Assembly (NCBI GenBank): GCA_016700015.1
Contig: CP064995.1
Location: 360,001-392,000 of the forward strand
DNA: 32,000 nucleotides
Reading direction: 5' to 3'
Source of the DNA: Candidatus Saccharimonadota bacterium
Lineage (GTDB): Bacteria; Patescibacteriota; Saccharimonadia; Saccharimonadales; Saccharimonadaceae
A program made the position numbers and the translations under genes. Of the stretch, positions 6,112-30,268 are shown piece after piece. The notes under the pieces are model-generated. The model worked only from the letters and a program-made list of their open reading frames with translations, had not been told where the DNA came from and ran no database searches. The stretch's first letter is position 1. The number at the start of each line of letters is the position of its first letter.

Positions 6112-6978
6112 ATGCAAGATAAGCACCAATCCTTATCAAAATACACAGTCCAACAATTTAACAAAGAATATCCAGACGACACAGCGTGTTTGCGTGCAGT
6201 GCTGAAAAATCGCTACGCCGAAACATGCCCTCGTTGCGGCACTATCGGGGTAAAATGGCATCCGATTACTGGACGCAAGGGATTCGTCTGTTCTGAATGC
6301 GACAGCCATGTTTATCCGCTCGCAGGAACGATATTCGAAAACTCAACCACAAGTCTGTGGAGCTGGTTTTATGTGATCTATCTATTCTCAGTCGCTCGAA
6401 ATGGCATATCGGCAAGAGAAGTAGAACGCCAACTTGGCGTCACTTATAAAACAGCATGGCGCATGTGCAGACAAATACGTTTACTCATGCAAGATAAAAC
6501 CCCAATGCTCGAAGGAACTGTTGAAGTAGATGAAACCTACATCGGTGGTAGACATCGCAGGAAGTATGGTTTTTCAAAAAAAGCACCCGTATTCGGAGCT
6601 ATTGAGAGAGGTGGATATGTTAAAACAGTCCATGTTAAAAGTACTGGAGCAAGAGTTCTCTTGCCGCAAATCTATTCAAAGGTGAAAACAAAAACAAGTG
6701 TTTATAGTGACGACTATCGTGCATATAAAAAGCTTGCGTGGTTTGGCTATGAGCACGCTTCCGTAAATCACTCTAGATGGCAATGGGCCGATGGTGATGT
6801 TTGCACTAACACAATTGAAGGATACTGGAGCCACCTTAAACGCTCCATTCGCGGAACTCACTGTTGGGTATCGAAAAAACACCTACAATTATATCTAGAC
6901 GAACATTCGTTTCGATACAATCACCGAAGCGAGGTTATTTTCCCGTACTTGATTCAACGGGTTTGGACGCTTTCTTGA
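6112..6978 (+). CDS. IS1595 family (ISXO2-like) DDE transposase
   Basis: The N-terminal zinc ribbon is CPRCG...CSEC, followed by an HTH-like segment. The DDE region has VEVDETYIGG, VYSDDYRAY and NTIEGYWSHLKR. Confidence 0.85.
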   Translation: MQDKHQSLSKYTVQQFNKEYPDDTACLRAVLKNRYAETCPRCGTIGVKWHPITGRKGFVCSECDSHVYPLAGTIFENSTTSLWSWFYVIYLFSVARNGISAREVERQLGVTYKTAWRMCRQIRLLMQDKTPMLEGTVEVDETYIGGRHRRKYGFSKKAPVFGAIERGGYVKTVHVKSTGARVLLPQIYSKVKTKTSVYSDDYRAYKKLAWFGYEHASVNHSRWQWADGDVCTNTIEGYWSHLKRSIRGTHCWVSKKHLQLYLDEHSFRYNHRSEVIFPYLIQRVWTLS

Positions 6979-10343: not shown

Positions 10344-11339
10344 ATGACTTTTCAGAGAGTACGTGAGCTTGATCCGCTCGGAATTGACCGGGAGCTTCGA
10401 GACCTTCCGGCTCTTAATGGATCAGCTGACATTGGCGCCATCGGCACAATTGTCGACGGTGTTGTCGCCCGTCTCGATACGACAACTTACGACAAGGATT
10501 CAGCGACGGCAGCAATGCGGGACCTCGACTTTCTTCTCAGTTCCAGTCTCCGGCACGGAGCTGATTTAGTAGTTGAAGGCGGCAGGATCGAGTCAGTCCT
10601 GCTCGGTTTAGGGAAAATTGCTTGCATGATCCCCCGAGGTACCGTATCGACATACGCGCTTGCCAATCCTCGAGGCGAGCGAGAACGGTCATTTACAGGT
10701 TCACCCGAAGAGCGCTTGTTTATCGAGTCTGTACGAAGCGGAGCAGAAAGTGTCGAGTCTAGCCTCGAGACATACGTCAACGAAGGAAAAATTGCTGGTC
10801 TTGCCGCGATGGAGAGTAGTATCGCTGACATGATTACCTCTATCATCGACGTGAAGCGCGGCGTGTCACCTGCGTACTTCAGTGGTCAGCTCAGGCCGTA
10901 TTTCGAGCCACTGACGATAGGTGGTAAGTTGTATGCAGGTTCGGGTGGTGCGCAACTTCAATTTATCGCAGTCGACTACCTGCTATGGGGCGTGGATTGT
11001 GACAATCCATTCTATCAGAATTACTTCGCCGACAATGTCCGCTATCTCAGTCCCGAACAACGTGCGTATCTCAAACTAGGTATCCACAAAAACGACGGCA
11101 AAAGCATTTTACGGTCAGCTATCGAAGATAACGACGGTCAGCTGTCTAAGCAGGCGATACGTGTTCTGCAATGTCTCAAAAAGTTTCGCTACCCGCATCG
11201 CAAGCTTGCACGTGATAACTTCAAGATCCGCCCTGACGGTAGCGTGGGTAGTGGCGTCTATACGACTGACATCCTTGATGTATTGCTCAATGAGACAATT
11301 GGAGCGATAGAGAAACTCGAAGGAATCGCGCATGAGTAA
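10344..11339 (+). CDS. PrnB-like (DUF1864; TDO/IDO-related heme enzyme superfamily) protein
   Basis: The blocks AAMRDLDFLLSSSLRHG, SFTGSPEERLFIESVR, QLRPYFEPLTIGGKLYAGSGGAQLQ...LLWG and KFRYPHRKLARDNF...GSGVY resemble the monodechloroaminopyrrolnitrin synthase family as I recall it. Confidence 0.5.
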   Translation: MTFQRVRELDPLGIDRELRDLPALNGSADIGAIGTIVDGVVARLDTTTYDKDSATAAMRDLDFLLSSSLRHGADLVVEGGRIESVLLGLGKIACMIPRGTVSTYALANPRGERERSFTGSPEERLFIESVRSGAESVESSLETYVNEGKIAGLAAMESSIADMITSIIDVKRGVSPAYFSGQLRPYFEPLTIGGKLYAGSGGAQLQFIAVDYLLWGVDCDNPFYQNYFADNVRYLSPEQRAYLKLGIHKNDGKSILRSAIEDNDGQLSKQAIRVLQCLKKFRYPHRKLARDNFKIRPDGSVGSGVYTTDILDVLLNETIGAIEKLEGIAHE

Positions 11340-12420
11340 GGACGTTGCAACATTTGCAGCAGGCACGATCCATAATCCATGTACTGTTTCGAAAACACCT
11401 CAAATGGTGCCGTCACGTCGGATGATGATCAAGTATCCGGCTCGACTAGAAGCGATGGCGCTGGATCCAGCAAAAATCGCAACCAATGATTCGCTTGTCT
11501 ACACTGCGGGACAAATCGACGTTTGCGTCGGCCTCTACAAAACTGTCACAGTTACGATAGACGAGACGAAACCGTCAGAGCTCATCATAACACCTACGAC
11601 AGGCCGCCGGACACTTGTCCTTCACGCTGCTCGCATGATGCAAAAGGCACTCGATATCCGCGGTCAGCTCACTGTTGACGTCAAAGACGAGGCAGGGCTG
11701 AGGCACTGTGGGCTTGGCTCGAGTAGTGGTACGATTGCTAGTGTGGCAAGCGCGATCAATGAACTGTACGGTCATCCAATCGCCGCACACGATTTGAGTC
11801 TCTATTGCGCGCAAAATCATGGTGAAGAGATCGATGGAAGTGATGATACGCTCACGGCTGTCCAATGTATCGGTGGATCGGTCGTATGTGGCAATTATGA
11901 GGGCGGTATTATCGTCCTTGCGGGCGAAGCAACACCGATAGCGCAGGTAAAAATTCCGACTGACTATAGTATCGTCATTGGTGTGCCAAATGATTTTGAT
12001 CATCCTGACTCGCTCGACTTGATGCAGCGTGAGGAGGACAACATGAAGGCGTTTATCACCACTGGCGAAGCGTACGGTCCACAAATTGCGTACCGCCTGG
12101 TTCATGATGTGCTTCCCGCGCTTGCGCTTGGAAATTTTGCTCCGTGCAAGTCGCTCGTATTCGACTATCGTTGGGATATGGGAAGCATACGAAATTGCTC
12201 ATTTGTCCTACCGCGCATCAATGATATTGCCGAAGCCCTGAGGCCTTTGCAGGAAGACTCAGCGGTCATAATGCTGTCACTTTCATCCGTCGGACCTGGA
12301 TTCTTTGCGATCACAACCGATCCAGTGCGAATCCGGACTCTATTTGAAGCGCAACATATGACAACAATTGAAACGGTCGTTCACAACGGCACCTATAAGA
12401 TAGGAGATATCGATGGTTAA
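11332..12420 (+). CDS. GHMP kinase superfamily protein, beta-ribofuranosylaminobenzene-5'-phosphate (beta-RFAP) synthase-like
   Basis: The GHMP motif is LRHCGLGSSSGTIASVASAINELYG. The N-terminal IKYPARLEAMALD and the later IGGSV...GGIIVLAG and SIVIGVPND blocks resemble the beta-RFAP synthase subfamily. The gene overlaps its upstream neighbour by 8 nt. The start is uncertain (in-frame Met codons at 11404, 11422 and 11425). Confidence 0.55.
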   Translation: MSKDVATFAAGTIHNPCTVSKTPQMVPSRRMMIKYPARLEAMALDPAKIATNDSLVYTAGQIDVCVGLYKTVTVTIDETKPSELIITPTTGRRTLVLHAARMMQKALDIRGQLTVDVKDEAGLRHCGLGSSSGTIASVASAINELYGHPIAAHDLSLYCAQNHGEEIDGSDDTLTAVQCIGGSVVCGNYEGGIIVLAGEATPIAQVKIPTDYSIVIGVPNDFDHPDSLDLMQREEDNMKAFITTGEAYGPQIAYRLVHDVLPALALGNFAPCKSLVFDYRWDMGSIRNCSFVLPRINDIAEALRPLQEDSAVIMLSLSSVGPGFFAITTDPVRIRTLFEAQHMTTIETVVHNGTYKIGDIDG

Positions 12421-13081
12421 GCAGACACAGGGTGAGAAGAGTTTTTGGAATGATGCGGACATGGCGGCGTATTTCGCCGCAAAACCTGCGGATCCACGAA
12501 TCCGGGATTTCGTCGCGACGCATTATGCGCATCCAAGCGGCCAATCCGCACTCGACTTGGGATGTGGCGGCGGTCGTCATAGTGAATTTCTTGCTGAGGC
12601 GGGGTTCGACGTCGTCAGCGTCGATCCAAACGAAGGGATGCGTCGTGCCACACGGATACGCCTCGCTTCAAAGGGACTTACTGCGACGATACGCGAAGGC
12701 GAGATTCTCGCTATTCCTTCGCCTGATGAACAGTTCGATCTCGTCGTGACAACAGGTGTACTCCATCAGGCAAATACGTCAGCCGAGTATGAGCACGCGC
12801 TCAGTGAACTGCACCGAGTGATGAAACGAGGAGCGTTTGTGTGCCTAAATATCTTTACGAATGCCGCTTGGGATCCGACGTACCAAACAGTAAGCAGGGA
12901 CGGGTATTCGGTGATGACTGCAGAGGATTTACCCATGACGCTATGGCCGCGTAATCATTTTCTTGAGCGTATGGAATGGCGTGGTTTTGCACTAGTTTCG
13001 GATTATCCCGAAGAAGTGCGCGAAGAAAACACCGGGAATAGGGCTGTTTACCGTGCAAACTTTCAGAAACGACAAATATAA
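12413..13081 (+). CDS. Class I SAM-dependent methyltransferase
   Basis: Motif I is ALDLGCGGGRHSEFLAEAGFDVVSVDPNEGM, with a post-I acidic residue and DLVVTTGVLHQ. The gene overlaps its upstream neighbour by 8 nt. Confidence 0.85.
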   Translation: MVKQTQGEKSFWNDADMAAYFAAKPADPRIRDFVATHYAHPSGQSALDLGCGGGRHSEFLAEAGFDVVSVDPNEGMRRATRIRLASKGLTATIREGEILAIPSPDEQFDLVVTTGVLHQANTSAEYEHALSELHRVMKRGAFVCLNIFTNAAWDPTYQTVSRDGYSVMTAEDLPMTLWPRNHFLERMEWRGFALVSDYPEEVREENTGNRAVYRANFQKRQI

Positions 13082-23014: not shown

Positions 23015-23634
23015 TGGCTACTGCAGAACAAAAGCCAGCAAAAGTCACCTTGCCAAAAAGCGTCTTTGCAGTTGACGTGCCCAGTCACGAGCTGTTAAAG
23101 CTCGCGTACGACGCATTCCTCGCAAACAGTCGCAAGGCAAGTGCTACTACCAAGACTCGCGGTGAAGTGAGTGGTGGTGGTAAAAAACCATGGAAGCAAA
23201 AGGGCACTGGCCGCGCACGCTTCGGCAGCAGCCGCAACCCAATTTGGCGCCATGGTGGTGTCGTGTTTGGGCCAAGCGGCAACGAAAACTACAAACTCAA
23301 GCTATCGAAAACAAGCAAGCTCGTGGCGGTGCGTCAAGCACTAACTCTTGCCAATCAGGCCAAGAAGATCACTGTCACCGATGTGAAGACTACCGGCAAA
23401 ACTGCCGAAGTAGCCGCCTTTATCGCTGCACAGAAGTTCGACGCAGATGCCAAGGTGCTTCTTGTTGTCGACGAAAAGACTCCAGCCCTGATGCGCGCGA
23501 CGAACAACCTGCAAAATGTGCTGTTAGTCCGCGCAACCTACCTGAGTGTTTATTACGTACTCAATGCCGATCAAATTGTCATGACCCCAGCTGCCGTAAA
23601 AGCCGTCGAAGCATGGTTGGGAGGTAACAAATAA
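23014..23634 (+). CDS. rplD: 50S ribosomal protein L4
   Basis: Conserved uL4 (GGGKKPWKQKGTGRARFGSSRNPIWRHGGVVFGP). TAATG coupling to rplC. Confidence 0.95.
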   Translation: MATAEQKPAKVTLPKSVFAVDVPSHELLKLAYDAFLANSRKASATTKTRGEVSGGGKKPWKQKGTGRARFGSSRNPIWRHGGVVFGPSGNENYKLKLSKTSKLVAVRQALTLANQAKKITVTDVKTTGKTAEVAAFIAAQKFDADAKVLLVVDEKTPALMRATNNLQNVLLVRATYLSVYYVLNADQIVMTPAAVKAVEAWLGGNK

Positions 23635-23810
23635 TGTTTGACCGATTAAAAACCACAGATTTTCAGCGCATACTTAAGGGTAGGCGCGATAATCAACTAG
23701 AACAGGCCGCTCAGGCTGCAGAAGCTGATGCAACACTCCTTCCCGAAGTAGCAGCCATGCTTGCTGCTGCATTGCGTAATGACAAAACTCCATCTGGAGG
23801 TAACAACTAA
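23634..23810 (+). CDS. Inserted 58-aa ORF between rplD and rplW
   Basis: The sequence is MFDRLKTTDFQRILKGRRDNQLEQAAQAAEADATLLPEVAAMLAAALRNDKTPSGGNN. There are TAATG overlaps at both ends, and the ggaggtaacaa[a/c]taatg junction is duplicated on both sides. It falls below the ORF-track cutoff. Confidence 0.45.
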   Translation: MFDRLKTTDFQRILKGRRDNQLEQAAQAAEADATLLPEVAAMLAAALRNDKTPSGGNN

Positions 23811-24127
23811 TGAAAACTATTCTCGTAACCCCTAGGGCTACCGAAAAAGCCTATCGCCTTGTTACCGCACAGAACACCTATGTGTTCAATGTGCCGACAA
23901 GCGCCAATAAACAACAAATCGTCGACGCTGTGCAGGCACAGTACGACGGCGTGAAAGTCGCTAGCGTCAAAACTGTGCTGCAGAGCGGCAAATCCGTCCG
24001 CTTCAGCCGCGGCAAACGCCGCTACCCAGGTACCATCACTCGCCAAGACACAAAGAAGGCCTATGTCACACTGAGTGAAGGCAAGATCAAGGTGTTCGAG
24101 CAAGATGCAGAGAAGGAGAAGAAATAA
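23810..24127 (+). CDS. rplW: 50S ribosomal protein L23
   Basis: Conserved uL23 sequence in the expected operon position. Confidence 0.93.
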   Translation: MKTILVTPRATEKAYRLVTAQNTYVFNVPTSANKQQIVDAVQAQYDGVKVASVKTVLQSGKSVRFSRGKRRYPGTITRQDTKKAYVTLSEGKIKVFEQDAEKEKK

Positions 24128-24393
24128 TGCGTAGTCCAGAAATTGGCACATTTAACTCTAAACCTGAAATCGAACAAGAGCCAGTATCAAAGATATCGAT
24201 GTCTCGAGAAGATATTGCTGCATATGTAAGGACAGCATATGCTAAAGATTTGGATAACGTTGATATTATCGAGACAATTTACCTAGAGTTAGAAGAAAGG
24301 CTAGACGTAGCATCCTTTGCTGTAGCACAAGATGTGATATTCAATCTAATGGTTTACTGTGCAGGCAATAAACGTTTCGAGGAGATTGTCTAA
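24127..24393 (+). CDS. Inserted 88-aa acidic ORF between rplW and rplB
   Basis: TAATG overlaps at both ends, its own SD, and visibly AT-richer than the flanking r-protein genes. No family recognised. Confidence 0.55.
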   Translation: MRSPEIGTFNSKPEIEQEPVSKISMSREDIAAYVRTAYAKDLDNVDIIETIYLELEERLDVASFAVAQDVIFNLMVYCAGNKRFEEIV

Positions 24394-25238: not shown

Positions 25239-25490
25239 ATGTCAGCTGATATATTACGTTTTACAGATCCAGCTTTGCTTCCAGGAAAAGTTCCATTCAC
25301 CGACAATATGAAAGCCGCATATGATGACCTCAAGGGTGATAAAGCTTACCGATCACATCCCGATCTTGTAGCTAGGTCTCTTCAGCGACTTGGTGCAGCT
25401 ACCTATGGCGCAATCGAAGCAGGAAGAGATGCAATGGCTGCCGAACGACGCGCATTCGGTTTAGAAAATGATAATAAGGAGAGTAACTAA
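25239..25490 (+). CDS. Inserted 83-aa ORF between rplB and rpsS
   Basis: The ATG lies 6 nt after the rplB stop, and the ORF ends in a TAATG overlap with rpsS. No family recognised. Confidence 0.55.
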
Positions 25491-27779: not shown

Positions 27780-28147
27780 TGATCCAGCAAGAAACCAGGT
27801 TAAAAGTCTGCGACAACAGTGGTGCCAAGGAAGTTCTGTGCATCAAAGTTCTCGGTGGCTCTAGGCGGCGCTATGCTCGGGTTGGTGATATCATCACCGT
27901 GAGCGTCAAAGACGCTAGTCCTACAGGGAACGTAAAGAAAAAAGCCGTGGTAAAAGCCGTGGTAGTACGAACTCGTGACCAGATTCGCCGTAAAGACGGC
28001 AGCACAATCTGTTTTGACGACAATGCCGTTGTGATTATAAATGACGACAAAACGCCAAAAGCTACTCGTGTGTTTGGCCCTGTGCCACGCGAACTGCGCG
28101 ATATGGGCTATGCCAAAATCATCAGCCTTGCGCCGGAGGTACTCTAA
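27779..28147 (+). CDS. rplN: 50S ribosomal protein L14
   Basis: [18 protein letters not shown]... is canonical uL14. Confidence 0.97.
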
Positions 28148-28148
28148 T

Positions 28149-28469
28149 ATGGCTCAGCGTATTCGCAAAGATGATTTCGTAAAAATTACCAGTGGTACCG
28201 ACAAAGGCACAACTGGCAAAGTGCTCGCTGTATTCCCAAGCAAAAACACCGCGCTTGTCGACGGTGTCGGCAAGGGTACACGGCACGTTAAGCCAAATCA
28301 GCTCAACCCACGCGGTGGCAAGAAAGACATTCATGTCGGCATTGCTCTGCACAAACTGGCACTTGTCACCGATGAAAAATCGGGCAAAACCAGCCGAATT
28401 GGCTACAAAGTAACCGATGGCGTAAAGGCTCGTGTAGCCCGCCAGCAGAAAAATAAGGAGATTAAATAA
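28149..28469 (+). CDS. rplX: 50S ribosomal protein L24
   Basis: MAQRIRKDDFVKITSGTDKGTTGKVL... is the KOW motif of uL24. The start is set at ATG 28149. Confidence 0.93.
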   Translation: MAQRIRKDDFVKITSGTDKGTTGKVLAVFPSKNTALVDGVGKGTRHVKPNQLNPRGGKKDIHVGIALHKLALVTDEKSGKTSRIGYKVTDGVKARVARQQKNKEIK

Positions 28470-28576
28470 TGCGATTTTTCGAAAAGAGCAGCCAGTCCCG
28501 AGCGATTTACTCGCTCGCACTGCGCGATGAGAAAAACGCTTGCGTTTGTCTCATGATAGTTAAGGAGATTAAATAA
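28469..28576 (+). CDS. Possible 35-aa ORF spanning repeat element copy A (rplX|rplE junction)
   Basis: The sequence is MRFFEKSSQSRAIYSLALRDEKNACVCLMIVKEIK, with TAATG overlaps at both ends. It may instead be a non-coding element. Confidence 0.3.
   Translation: MRFFEKSSQSRAIYSLALRDEKNACVCLMIVKEIK
28481..28554 (+). repeat. 74-nt hairpin-rich repeat, copy A
   Basis: It is identical to 29177-29250 except for one base (t/c at 28496 vs 29192). Hairpin cgagcga/tcgctcg spans 28499-28517. Hairpin atgagaaaaacgc/gcgtttgtctcat spans 28527-28554. Confidence 0.9.
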
Positions 28577-29160
28577 TGGCAGAATCCAAAAAAGCCGCCG
28601 TTTACACTCCTCGCTTGAAAGCCTTGTACAAGAATCAGTACGTCAAGGAACTACAGGCCGAATTGAAGCTCGACAATGTACATGAAGTACCGAGTCTTGA
28701 GAAGATTGTGGTAAGCGTAGGAACCGGTAAAAGCAAAGACGACAAGCGCATGCTTGAAGCAGTCAAGAATACCCTGACAAAAGTAACTGGCCAGGCGCCT
28801 GTTGAGCGACTTGCCAAAAAATCAATTGCAAGTTTCAAAATCCGCGCCGGCATGGGTGCCCCTGTGGGAATCAATGTAACACTGCGCGGCGCTCGGATGT
28901 ACGAGTTCCTTGATCGTTTTGTTAACATTGCGCTGCCACGCGTACGCGACTTCCATGGTGTCGGCGTAAAGTTCGACCGCGGCGGCAACTACAACCTTGG
29001 CATTACCGACCAGAGCATTTTCCCAGAGCTGACATTTGAAGAAACACAGATTGTTCACGGAATGCAGGTGACATTTACCATCAACAATGGTGACAAAGTA
29101 AAGAGCCGTGCATTGCTAGAAAAATTCGGTCTACCTTTTGAAAAAGAAGGGGGCAGGTAA
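28576..29160 (+). CDS. rplE: 50S ribosomal protein L5
   Basis: Conserved uL5 sequence in the expected operon position. Confidence 0.96.
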   Translation: MAESKKAAVYTPRLKALYKNQYVKELQAELKLDNVHEVPSLEKIVVSVGTGKSKDDKRMLEAVKNTLTKVTGQAPVERLAKKSIASFKIRAGMGAPVGINVTLRGARMYEFLDRFVNIALPRVRDFHGVGVKFDRGGNYNLGITDQSIFPELTFEETQIVHGMQVTFTINNGDKVKSRALLEKFGLPFEKEGGR

Positions 29161-29161
29161 T

Positions 29162-29275
29162 ATGAAGACTGTATTTGAAAAGAGCAGCCAGCCCCGAGCG
29201 ATTTACTCGCTCGCACTGCGCGATGAGAAAAACGCTTGCGTTTGTCTCATAACTGATAAAGAAGGAGGACGCTAA
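29162..29275 (+). CDS. Possible 37-aa ORF spanning repeat element copy B (rplE|rpsN junction)
   Basis: The sequence is MKTVFEKSSQPRAIYSLALRDEKNACVCLITDKEGGR. It starts 1 nt after the rplE stop and ends immediately before the rpsN ATG. Confidence 0.3.
   Translation: MKTVFEKSSQPRAIYSLALRDEKNACVCLITDKEGGR
29177..29250 (+). repeat. 74-nt hairpin-rich repeat, copy B
   Basis: See copy A. The offset between copies is 696 nt, and they bracket rplE. Confidence 0.9.
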
Positions 29276-29545
29276 ATGGCCAAGAAATCTATGATTGCTC
29301 GCGACAAAAAGCGTCAGAAGCTAATTGCCAAGTTTGCCGCGAAACGCGCTGAACTAAAAGAGCTTGGCGACCTTGACGGTTTGCAAAAGCTGCCAAAGAA
29401 CAGCAGCCCAACCCGCTGGAAAAATCGCGATGTACTAAGCGGCCGCCCACGTGGCTACATGCGCAGGTTTGGCCTGAGCCGCATCAACTTCCGCGAAAAA
29501 GCAGTCAAGGGTGAAATCCCCGGTATAACCAAGAGTAGCTGGTAA
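29276..29545 (+). CDS. rpsN: 30S ribosomal protein S14 (long form, lacking the Cys zinc-binding motifs)
   Basis: [13 protein letters not shown]...[18 protein letters not shown]...W is canonical uS14. Confidence 0.95.
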
Positions 29546-29965: not shown

Positions 29966-30268
29966 ATGGCAAATAAGGAAGCTACGGCCCAACTAACGGG
30001 TGATCAGCACATAGATGACACCCACCTCGAGTATCAGGACGATACCGCAAGAGCGAATGAGCTAGCTATAGAACTTGGTAGAATAGCAAACGAACTTGGT
30101 GAGATTTTTGGTATGCTTAGTAATCCTGCGCGTGTAACCCGCGATGCTGCCCATGCAGTGGATAGACAACTTGCGACTAATCGTCAGGCTGTGCTCAATA
30201 GGCAGCATAGCGCAACAATAGCCCCCGAGCCTCGTCTCGATGTGAGAAAACGACCAACAATCCGTTAG
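29966..30268 (+). CDS. Inserted 100-aa ORF between rpsH and rplF
   Basis: The ATG lies 1 nt after the rpsH stop. The protein is acidic and helical-looking. No family recognised. Confidence 0.5.
   Translation: MANKEATAQLTGDQHIDDTHLEYQDDTARANELAIELGRIANELGEIFGMLSNPARVTRDAAHAVDRQLATNRQAVLNRQHSATIAPEPRLDVRKRPTIR

Follow-up and report, generated by a model that had tools for sequence, protein, structure and literature searches.

The window analysed here is a stretch of 32,000 nucleotides (nt) from a Candidatus Saccharimonadota bacterium (assembly GCA_016700015.1, contig CP064995.1, positions 360,001 to 392,000), and its part from 26 to 32 kb holds the S10/spc ribosomal-protein operon of a member of the Saccharibacteria, in which L24, S14 and S8 were assigned by Pfam and L5 by precomputed Pfam hits. 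The closest named homologues of the L24 protein are from Candidatus Saccharibacteria (81% identity). In this operon rplE is flanked on both sides by near-identical copies of a two-hairpin element of about 90 nt, each sitting between two versions of the junction that carries the stop codon of the upstream gene, a Shine–Dalgarno (SD) sequence and the start codon of the downstream gene (Table 1). As a first-pass annotation of the sequence had reported, the cores of the two copies (28481–28554 and 29177–29250) differ at one of 74 nt (T28496 versus C29192). A stretch of 58 nt is identical without interruption (28497–28554 and 29193–29250), and the full direct repeat spans 89 nt at 92% identity (28478–28566 and 29174–29262), with no match in 100 shuffled sequences.

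The annotated surroundings of the copies are likewise confirmed: copy A is bracketed by an exact direct repeat of 18 nt and copy B by diverged repeats, and both copies are open as reading frames of 35 and 37 amino acids (aa), hereafter mini-ORFs, that are coupled to the next gene. At site B, the right repeat is one mismatch away from the L5–S14 junction of L009, a relative in which this site is empty (AAAGAAGGAGGCCGCTAAATG; the labels L001 to L031 denote the loci and contigs compared with the window), and the left repeat retains the C terminus of L5, KEGGR*, via synonymous codons. Mini-ORF A was predicted as a gene in L001 and L017. The right junction copy of site A is unpaired in the minimum-free-energy fold. 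The covariance model described below matches copy A at 28473–28562 with 104–108 bits and copy B at 29169–29258 with 101–103 bits. No promoter-like or terminator-like site was found on the + strand of the scanned region holding both copies, with no T run after either hairpin, and the window contains no tRNA or tmRNA genes.

Table 1. Features of the two window copies, further members of the family, empty junctions and regions with lineage-specific genes (inserts) at the S8–L6 junction. Fractions are matching positions between the two flanking repeats.
Feature	Locus	Coordinates	Strand	Details
Left junction copy, site A	window	28454–28471	+	L24-stop/SD/ATG; exact 18-nt repeat TAAGGAGATTAAATAATG; duplication 18/18
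rplX stop TAA	window	28467–28469	+	
ATG at site A	window	28469–28471	+	now opens mini-ORF A
Element copy A	window	28472–28560	+	L24–L5; 89-nt insert between direct repeats; conserved core 28481–28554
Hairpin 1, copy A	window	28491–28525	+	inner stem 28499–28505/28511–28517, loop UUUAC, outer pairs 28491–28496/28519–28525
Hairpin 2, copy A	window	28527–28554	+	AUGAGA-A-AAACG CUUG CGUUU-G-UCUCAU
Right junction copy, site A	window	28561–28578	+	second TAAGGAGATTAAATAATG; gives rplE its SD and ATG (28576–28578)
Mini-ORF A, 35 aa	window	28469–28576	+	from ATG overlapping rplX stop to duplicated TAA overlapping rplE ATG
Left junction copy, site B	window	29143–29164	+	AAAGAAGGGGGCAGGTAATATG, L5-stop/SD/ATG; compared with empty site in L009; ATG 29162–29164 opens mini-ORF B; duplication diverged
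Element copy B	window	29165–29257	+	L5–S14; core 29177–29250; hairpin 1 29187–29221; hairpin 2 29223–29250
Right junction copy, site B	window	29258–29278	+	AAAGAAGGAGGACGCTAAATG; SD and ATG of rpsN
Mini-ORF B, 37 aa from ATG	window	29162–29275	+	duplicated TAA abuts rpsN ATG at 29276
rpoB–rpoC copy	L004, GCA_964602775.1			word scan; duplication ~14/17
Copy after recG	L007			word scan
Copy 6 nt upstream of tRNA-Lys(UUU)	L008			word scan; promoter-like sequence upstream of copy, judged by eye
L24–L5 copy	Ca. Saccharimonas aalborgensis (L009, L012, L013)			word scan; duplication 15/17 (L009)
L6–L18 copy	L011, 973-kb metagenomic contig			word scan
L6–L18 copy	Ca. S. aalborgensis (L009/L012)			covariance model; duplication 29/34, 22/23 up to ATG, then 11 nt into rplR
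L16–L29 copy	L025			covariance model; duplication 17/17 (GGGAGGAAGCGTAGATG)
L36–S13 copy	L025			covariance model; duplication diverged
L6–L18 copy	L027			covariance model
Antisense copy in secY 3' untranslated region (UTR)	L027			covariance model
L36–S13 copy	L029, L030			covariance model; duplication diverged
L24–L5, empty	L011			AAGGAGATTAAGTAATG-GCAGAC
L24–L5, empty	L021, L023, L025, L027, L029, L031			contiguous gene calls; L24 stop overlaps L5 start
L5–S14, empty	L009			AAAGAAGGAGGCCGCTAAATG-GCT
L5–S14, empty	L011			junction sequence inspected
L6–L18, empty	window			junction sequence inspected; filled in L011, L027, L009
L36–S13, empty	L021			junction sequence inspected; filled in L025, L029
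S8–L6 insert	L011	10100–10499		
S8–L6 insert	L013 (reverse complement)	6178–6312		
S8–L6 insert	L025	11591–11767		
S8–L6 insert	L027	11595–11804		
S8–L6 insert	L029	5053–5259		
S8–L6 insert	L031	11592–11780		
S8–L6 insert	L021	11799–12488		

A search of related genomes for the element, as proposed with the first-pass annotation, yielded further copies. These were found by exact-word scans and then with a covariance model built from the copies so obtained, L24 serving as the query for related operons. With them the family counts 14 copies, spread over about 10 distinct sites and about 9 genomes of Saccharibacteria. One 22-mer match, in L014, was rejected as a chance match within a GC-rich gene. 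As the same gene junctions are empty in relatives, including close ones, the copies are insertions. At 9 of about 10 independent sites the element lies in sense orientation in highly expressed transcripts, but in every locus the strand that carries the element is also the one with positive GC skew, so that the sense bias is confounded with the direction of replication.

The flanking repeats, compared with the empty sites, agree with this. In L011 and L027 the duplication extends at least 10 nt beyond the ATG, and the left repeats of site B and L36–S13 differ from the empty sites chiefly by synonymous changes in the final codons of the upstream gene. Duplication scores as high as those observed were reached by 0–1 of 500 shuffles, and site A gave the only 17/17 match among 253 operon-junction pairs compared over the 17 nt ending at the ATG, for which the background had a mean of 8.7/17 and a non-cognate maximum of 15/17. 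The comparisons show that the insertion duplicated a long target of variable length, from 17 to about 34 nt, that at gene junctions always took in SD, stop and start. If the mechanism yields duplications of such sizes, selection alone would set them over the SD-to-ATG span of about 15–17 nt. A model with a circular intermediate and site-specific recombination was rejected, as the repeats that flank copies A and B all come from the target and are not donor/target chimeras.

Each copy folds into two hairpins, with an extent that differs from that first described. The 7-bp stem assigned to hairpin 1 is present and forms part of a longer helix of 13 interrupted pairs (28491–28525), and the 13-bp stem assigned to hairpin 2 would leave a loop of 2 nt; the actual stem has 6 + 5 bp, with an A·G mismatch and a CUUG loop. 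The folding energy of the trimmed element is −28.2 kcal/mol (z = −2.8), and with flanks included z is only −1.0 to −1.6. Covariation was measured on an alignment of the 14 copies (A5), and its numbers have to be read with the caveat that the alignment was fitted to the model: 97.3% of the cells are paired, against 24–52% in slid-partner controls, and 12 of the 24 pairs have changed on both sides (27 cells), none of 500 shuffles reaching any of the measures. The compensatory changes fall on 8 of the 13 pairs of hairpin 1 and 4 of the 11 pairs of hairpin 2. Hairpin 1 is wholly rewritten in some copies with its pairing kept, the stems seen being CGAGCGA/UCGCUCG, CAGGA/UCCUG, CGACGGA/UCCGUCG, GCAAUUU/AAAUUGC and CAGACAAAAUG/CAUUUUGUCUG, and its UUUAC loop is retained in the L6–L18 copy of Ca. 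S. aalborgensis and swapped in L027 and L029. Hardly any variation is seen across the family in the 5' single-stranded motif GGAAAAGAGCAGCC, in the single-stranded stretch GCGCGAUGAG that separates the hairpins (linker GCGCGAU) or in the base of hairpin 2. The sense strand has four G·U pairs versus two A·C mismatches, a difference that is not decisive for the folding strand. These patterns show that the two-hairpin fold is maintained by compensatory substitutions; with covariation set against codon conservation, a check suggested by the annotation, structure is kept and the peptide is not. Rfam gave no match in the whole window at gathering thresholds and only noise over 28440–28600 at E ≤ 10, the best match scoring 15.8 bits against a threshold of 62 bits.

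All 10 copies at gene junctions have a start codon overlapping or abutting the upstream stop (as TAATG, TAGATG or TAGTG) and a stop codon at the duplicated junction, with three frames used, and the three non-junction copies all lack a start codon. The first-pass annotation had proposed either a small mobile insertion that preserves operon translation or a structured RNA site placed before rplE and rpsN, and the filled and empty sites, the target duplications at about seven independent junctions and the 10 open mini-ORFs speak for the former. We consider it likely that the copies represent an undescribed family of protein-less, non-autonomous structured mobile elements of about 90 nt in Saccharibacteria, tolerated in essential operons because the insertion rebuilds translational coupling; full-text literature searches gave no description of such an element in Saccharibacteria. 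The left junction copy would start translation into the element, the translating ribosome would melt both hairpins and terminate at the duplicated stop, which overlaps or abuts the real start (TAATG, TAGATG, TAAATG), and it would re-initiate at the true start with the aid of the duplicated SD, unpaired in the predicted fold. In this way rplE and rpsN would keep their coupled, stoichiometric expression. In these operons an insertion that failed to rebuild the junction, or that brought in an in-frame stop, would prove lethal, and no such insertion was seen. Mobilisation is expected to occur in trans, by an activity recognising the conserved fold and motifs, either through a transposase with widely staggered cuts or through template switching or complementary DNA (cDNA).

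Several points weigh against a mobile element of this kind. The translation of the mini-ORF and the re-initiation are steps that we infer. No transposase-like gene was found beside any copy in the flanks examined (2–20 kb per copy), and the only transposase in the window, of the IS1595 family (ISXO2-like DDE; 6112–6978, in a low-GC stretch with 38–43% GC at 6–9 kb), was rejected as a partner because it has no terminal sequence in common with the element, with which its surroundings share nothing either. Terminal inverted repeats are absent, the left ends (YGTTTTNNGGAAAAGAGC) and the reverse-complemented right ends (after GTCTCAT plus 6–9 nt) not being complementary in any copy. DDE transposition seldom leaves duplications of 17–34 nt. 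Copy number is low, at one hit per genome in the exact-word scans, and most of the additional copies come from loci fetched via L24 homologues, so that the preference for ribosomal operons is partly one of ascertainment. Copies at the same junction of diverged genomes are conserved without conserved flanks, and a purely selfish, decaying insertion would not stay so conserved unless the sites were hit repeatedly. Finally, no significant duplication flanks the three non-junction copies; the duplication might thus belong to junction insertions only, and the missing repeat also fits neutral decay. Searches for a viral origin with exact and degenerate two-part patterns gave no match in IMG/VR contigs, and there was none in GenBank phages.

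Movement might also occur without a dedicated transposase. A transcription-oriented copy-choice process, in which a reverse transcriptase or replicative template switching would exit and re-enter at purine-rich microhomologies such as the SD and lysine-rich first codons, and/or a co-option of the invariant RNA motifs as a cis-acting module for termination–reinitiation or processing in long essential operons, is possible though on balance doubtful. Four features would be explained by the copy-choice route: the variable duplications of 17–34 nt that always run from SD to start, the orientation in the sense direction, the missing terminal repeats and the bias towards the most highly expressed transcripts. 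Homologous recombination of conserved flanking genes is a further way in which copies can spread. Between L011 (10880–12475) and L027 (12190–13800), identity rises from about 80–88% to 97–100% about 170 nt upstream of the L6–L18 element that both carry, and this level holds to the end of the locus, a sign of mosaic homologous recombination between Saccharibacteria that have diverged. The window copies, compared with L009 or L005, are not embedded in a tract of this kind, and recombination was rejected as their source. L011 and L027 share further short islands of high identity in the operon.

The conservation of the motifs also brings up a function for the host. The element could be a useful cis-acting RNA module, for instance a site for processing, for stability or for protein binding, or an enhancer of re-initiation upstream of stop/start overlaps, that was copied into several highly expressed transcripts and for which mobility is only the means of spread, an explanation that can coexist with that of a tolerated mobile element and that we regard as unlikely. 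The motifs GGAAAAGAGCAGCC and GCGCGAUGAG and the base of hairpin 2 are far more conserved than the flanking synonymous sites, with no hitch-hiking of the flanks, and compensatory changes are seen even between same-junction copies of diverged genomes (L025 versus L029 at L36–S13). The prevalent sense orientation in highly expressed transcripts and the excess of sense-strand G·U pairs over A·C mismatches point the same way. However, close relatives lack the element at every site examined, it turns up in contexts as different as mRNA junctions, a tRNA leader and 3' UTRs, a single copy runs antisense to secY, nothing in Rfam resembles it even at the most permissive cutoff used, and the sense bias cannot be separated from replication direction.

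A more specific function, suggested in the annotation by analogy to the spc operon of E. coli, is that of an autoregulatory site for rplE and rpsN bound by S8, L5 or S14. The S8 operator of E. coli is a fixed regulatory site at the rplE start that mimics the S8 site of the 16S ribosomal RNA, and the Saccharibacteria element resembles it as a structured RNA at the L24–L5 junction. The position of the window copies immediately upstream of the rplE and rpsN starts is all that would favour such a role, which the wider distribution makes very unlikely: the same element is found at rpoB–rpoC, in the tRNA-Lys leader, at recG and in the secY 3' UTR, the L24–L5 and L5–S14 junctions are empty in most relatives, and no Rfam ribosomal-protein-leader model matches. 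Unlike the operator, the element is polymorphic, occurs in unrelated transcripts and has no fixed position.

Equally improbable is a conserved micro-protein gene duplicated in the operon. Typical copies do share the peptide FEKSSQxRAIYSLALRDEKNACVCL, which gene callers annotate and which the annotation had taken as a common feature, but diverged copies (L6–L18 of Ca. S. aalborgensis, and L029) use other frames, which encode unrelated peptides, e.g. MSDLAITQGKRAAGASGFTPVRRAMRK... and MALGFHREKEQPEQFSHKLPGAMRK..., copy A of L009 changes frame midway, inside hairpin 2, and three copies have no start codon at all. Pfam gave no match for the element peptides, and a search of a set of 5.8 billion proteins returned only two small clusters, which helped to locate copies and gave no sign of a protein family. 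The substitution pattern is also not that of a coding gene. The ribosomal genes of the window are 70–80% identical to those of L009, L011 and L005, with 42–55% identity at third codon positions, and the element core of about 50 nt is 98–100% identical among typical copies that have no conserved flanks, with almost no synonymous change in the core, and none in 17 codons between genomes near saturation at third codon positions. The constraint acts on nucleotides or structure and not on codons, and the peptide is free to change while an open frame is retained at every coupled junction.

The repeat is not an artefact of assembly or duplication around rplE, the probability of which we regard as practically negligible, because several independent metagenome assemblies carry the element and other genomes have copies with their own site-specific duplications. 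Proteins identical to the L5 and L24 of the window are found on contigs from several independent ENA and Logan samples; copy A is in place in L001, L002, L003, L017 and L018, at least four independent assemblies (L001, L002, L003, L018) having the order L24, element, L5, and copy B is complete in L001 and L003 and begins in L002, where it is cut by the contig end. The concern raised with the annotation, that the element might occur nowhere else and one copy be an assembly duplication, is settled by the family and by these assemblies. The repeat does disturb assembly: two Logan contigs (L016 and L019) stop within the element, and three contigs lack rplE and join L24 straight to S14 via a hybrid copy with the left part of A and the right part of B, one from the same species as the window (L020, 1030–1160) and two from a relative (L005, 423–553; L006, 255–385). 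The simplest reading is that the latter three are probably chimeras from assembling across the repeat, and a genuine loss of rplE, with the two copies recombining, is possible.

[quoted passage not shown] The Saccharibacteria element is similarly small, non-coding, found at multiple loci and present or absent between relatives, and it has flanking target duplications (18/18, 17/17 and 29/34) confirmed against empty sites. In contrast to MITEs, whose terminal inverted repeats (about 4–30 bp) match those of a parent insertion sequence (IS), it has no terminal inverted repeats, its duplications of 17 to about 34 nt are atypical in being long and variable rather than short and fixed, its copy number is very low, and no related IS has been identified. 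The Rickettsia palindromic elements (RPEs) are palindromic and selfish and insert in-frame into protein-coding genes (PMC10969869). Both RPEs and the Saccharibacteria element survive in compact genomes by remaining translatable, but RPEs join the host protein and encode a conserved peptide segment, whereas the element described here is a separate mini-cistron read in three frames, with a peptide that is not conserved.

The resemblance to REP, BIME and REPIN sequences and to palindromes derived from IS200/IS605 lies in a recognition that appears to rest on conserved hairpins with short single-stranded motifs, in stems that vary as long as they pair, and in the strand or orientation bias. Such palindromes are extragenic, insert 3' of a short specific motif, cause no target duplication and usually occur in tens to hundreds of copies beside RAYT/TnpA (HUH Y1) genes. 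The Saccharibacteria element differs from them by its long site-specific duplications and by the one or two copies detected per genome, and the flanks of the copies showed no HUH gene. Elements of the IS1634/IS1549 type are autonomous insertion sequences of 1.5–2 kb with inverted repeats, a DDE transposase and long variable direct repeats. They provide a bacterial precedent for variable target duplications of tens of bases, but no such partner or shared termini are known for the Saccharibacteria element.

If the copies are tolerated mobile elements, selfish DNA can colonise the most constrained places of a genome of about 1 Mb, the overlapping stop/start junctions in ribosomal-protein and RNA-polymerase operons; it would copy the complete translational-coupling signal and itself remain translatable. 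Target duplications of such length and variability suggest a mode of insertion that is so far undescribed among the miniature elements of bacteria, and the junction copies offer natural test cases for termination–reinitiation in bacteria. In practical terms, the new family comes with a usable covariance model that can be applied to Saccharibacteria and other genomes of the candidate phyla radiation. It accounts for the spurious hypothetical genes of 34–42 aa in these operons as well as for assembly breaks and rplE-less chimeric contigs, which could distort marker-gene completeness estimates and ribosomal-protein phylogenies.

Upstream of rpsJ in L011, at 391–470, the covariance model gave a weak match (16–20 bits, E 0.005–0.1) with a similar 5' motif (GGGAAAGCGCAGCC) and a palindrome, lacking hairpin 2, which may be a decayed relative of the element or noise. 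The window operon also contains four orphan open reading frames, mostly coupled via TAATG overlaps, at 23634–23810 (58 aa, L4–L23), 24127–24393 (88 aa, L23–L2), 25239–25490 (83 aa, L2–S19) and 29966–30268 (100 aa, S8–L6), with no significant Pfam match and no homologue found by tblastn in the related operons compared. The first of them is flanked by GGAGGTAACAAATAATG and GGAGGTAACAACTAATG, which match at 16/17 positions, barely above the non-cognate background of 15/17; junction-duplicating insertion may extend beyond the hairpin element. In L005, an unrelated insertion of 112 nt at L6–L18 (1976–2086) contains tandem repeats of ATATGCA along with a palindrome rich in GC (GGGCGCGCTTCGCGC).

Lineage-specific genes have a hotspot at the S8–L6 junction (Table 1), with small reading frames of 44–69 aa, some of them clearly hydrophobic (e.g. 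MDVLAIVLTIVPIVLLVILIQ...), and, in L021 and L023, a protein of 229 aa with an Exo_endo_phos domain. Further upstream, the window encodes a protein with a secreted-ribonuclease domain (59–931) and a PrnB-like protein followed by a GHMP-kinase-like protein and a methyltransferase (10344–13081), an unusual accessory content for the genome of an epibiont of about 1 Mb. Within rplN, at 27940–27963, an exact 12-nt tandem duplication (AAAAGCCGTGGT twice) encodes KAVVKAVV.

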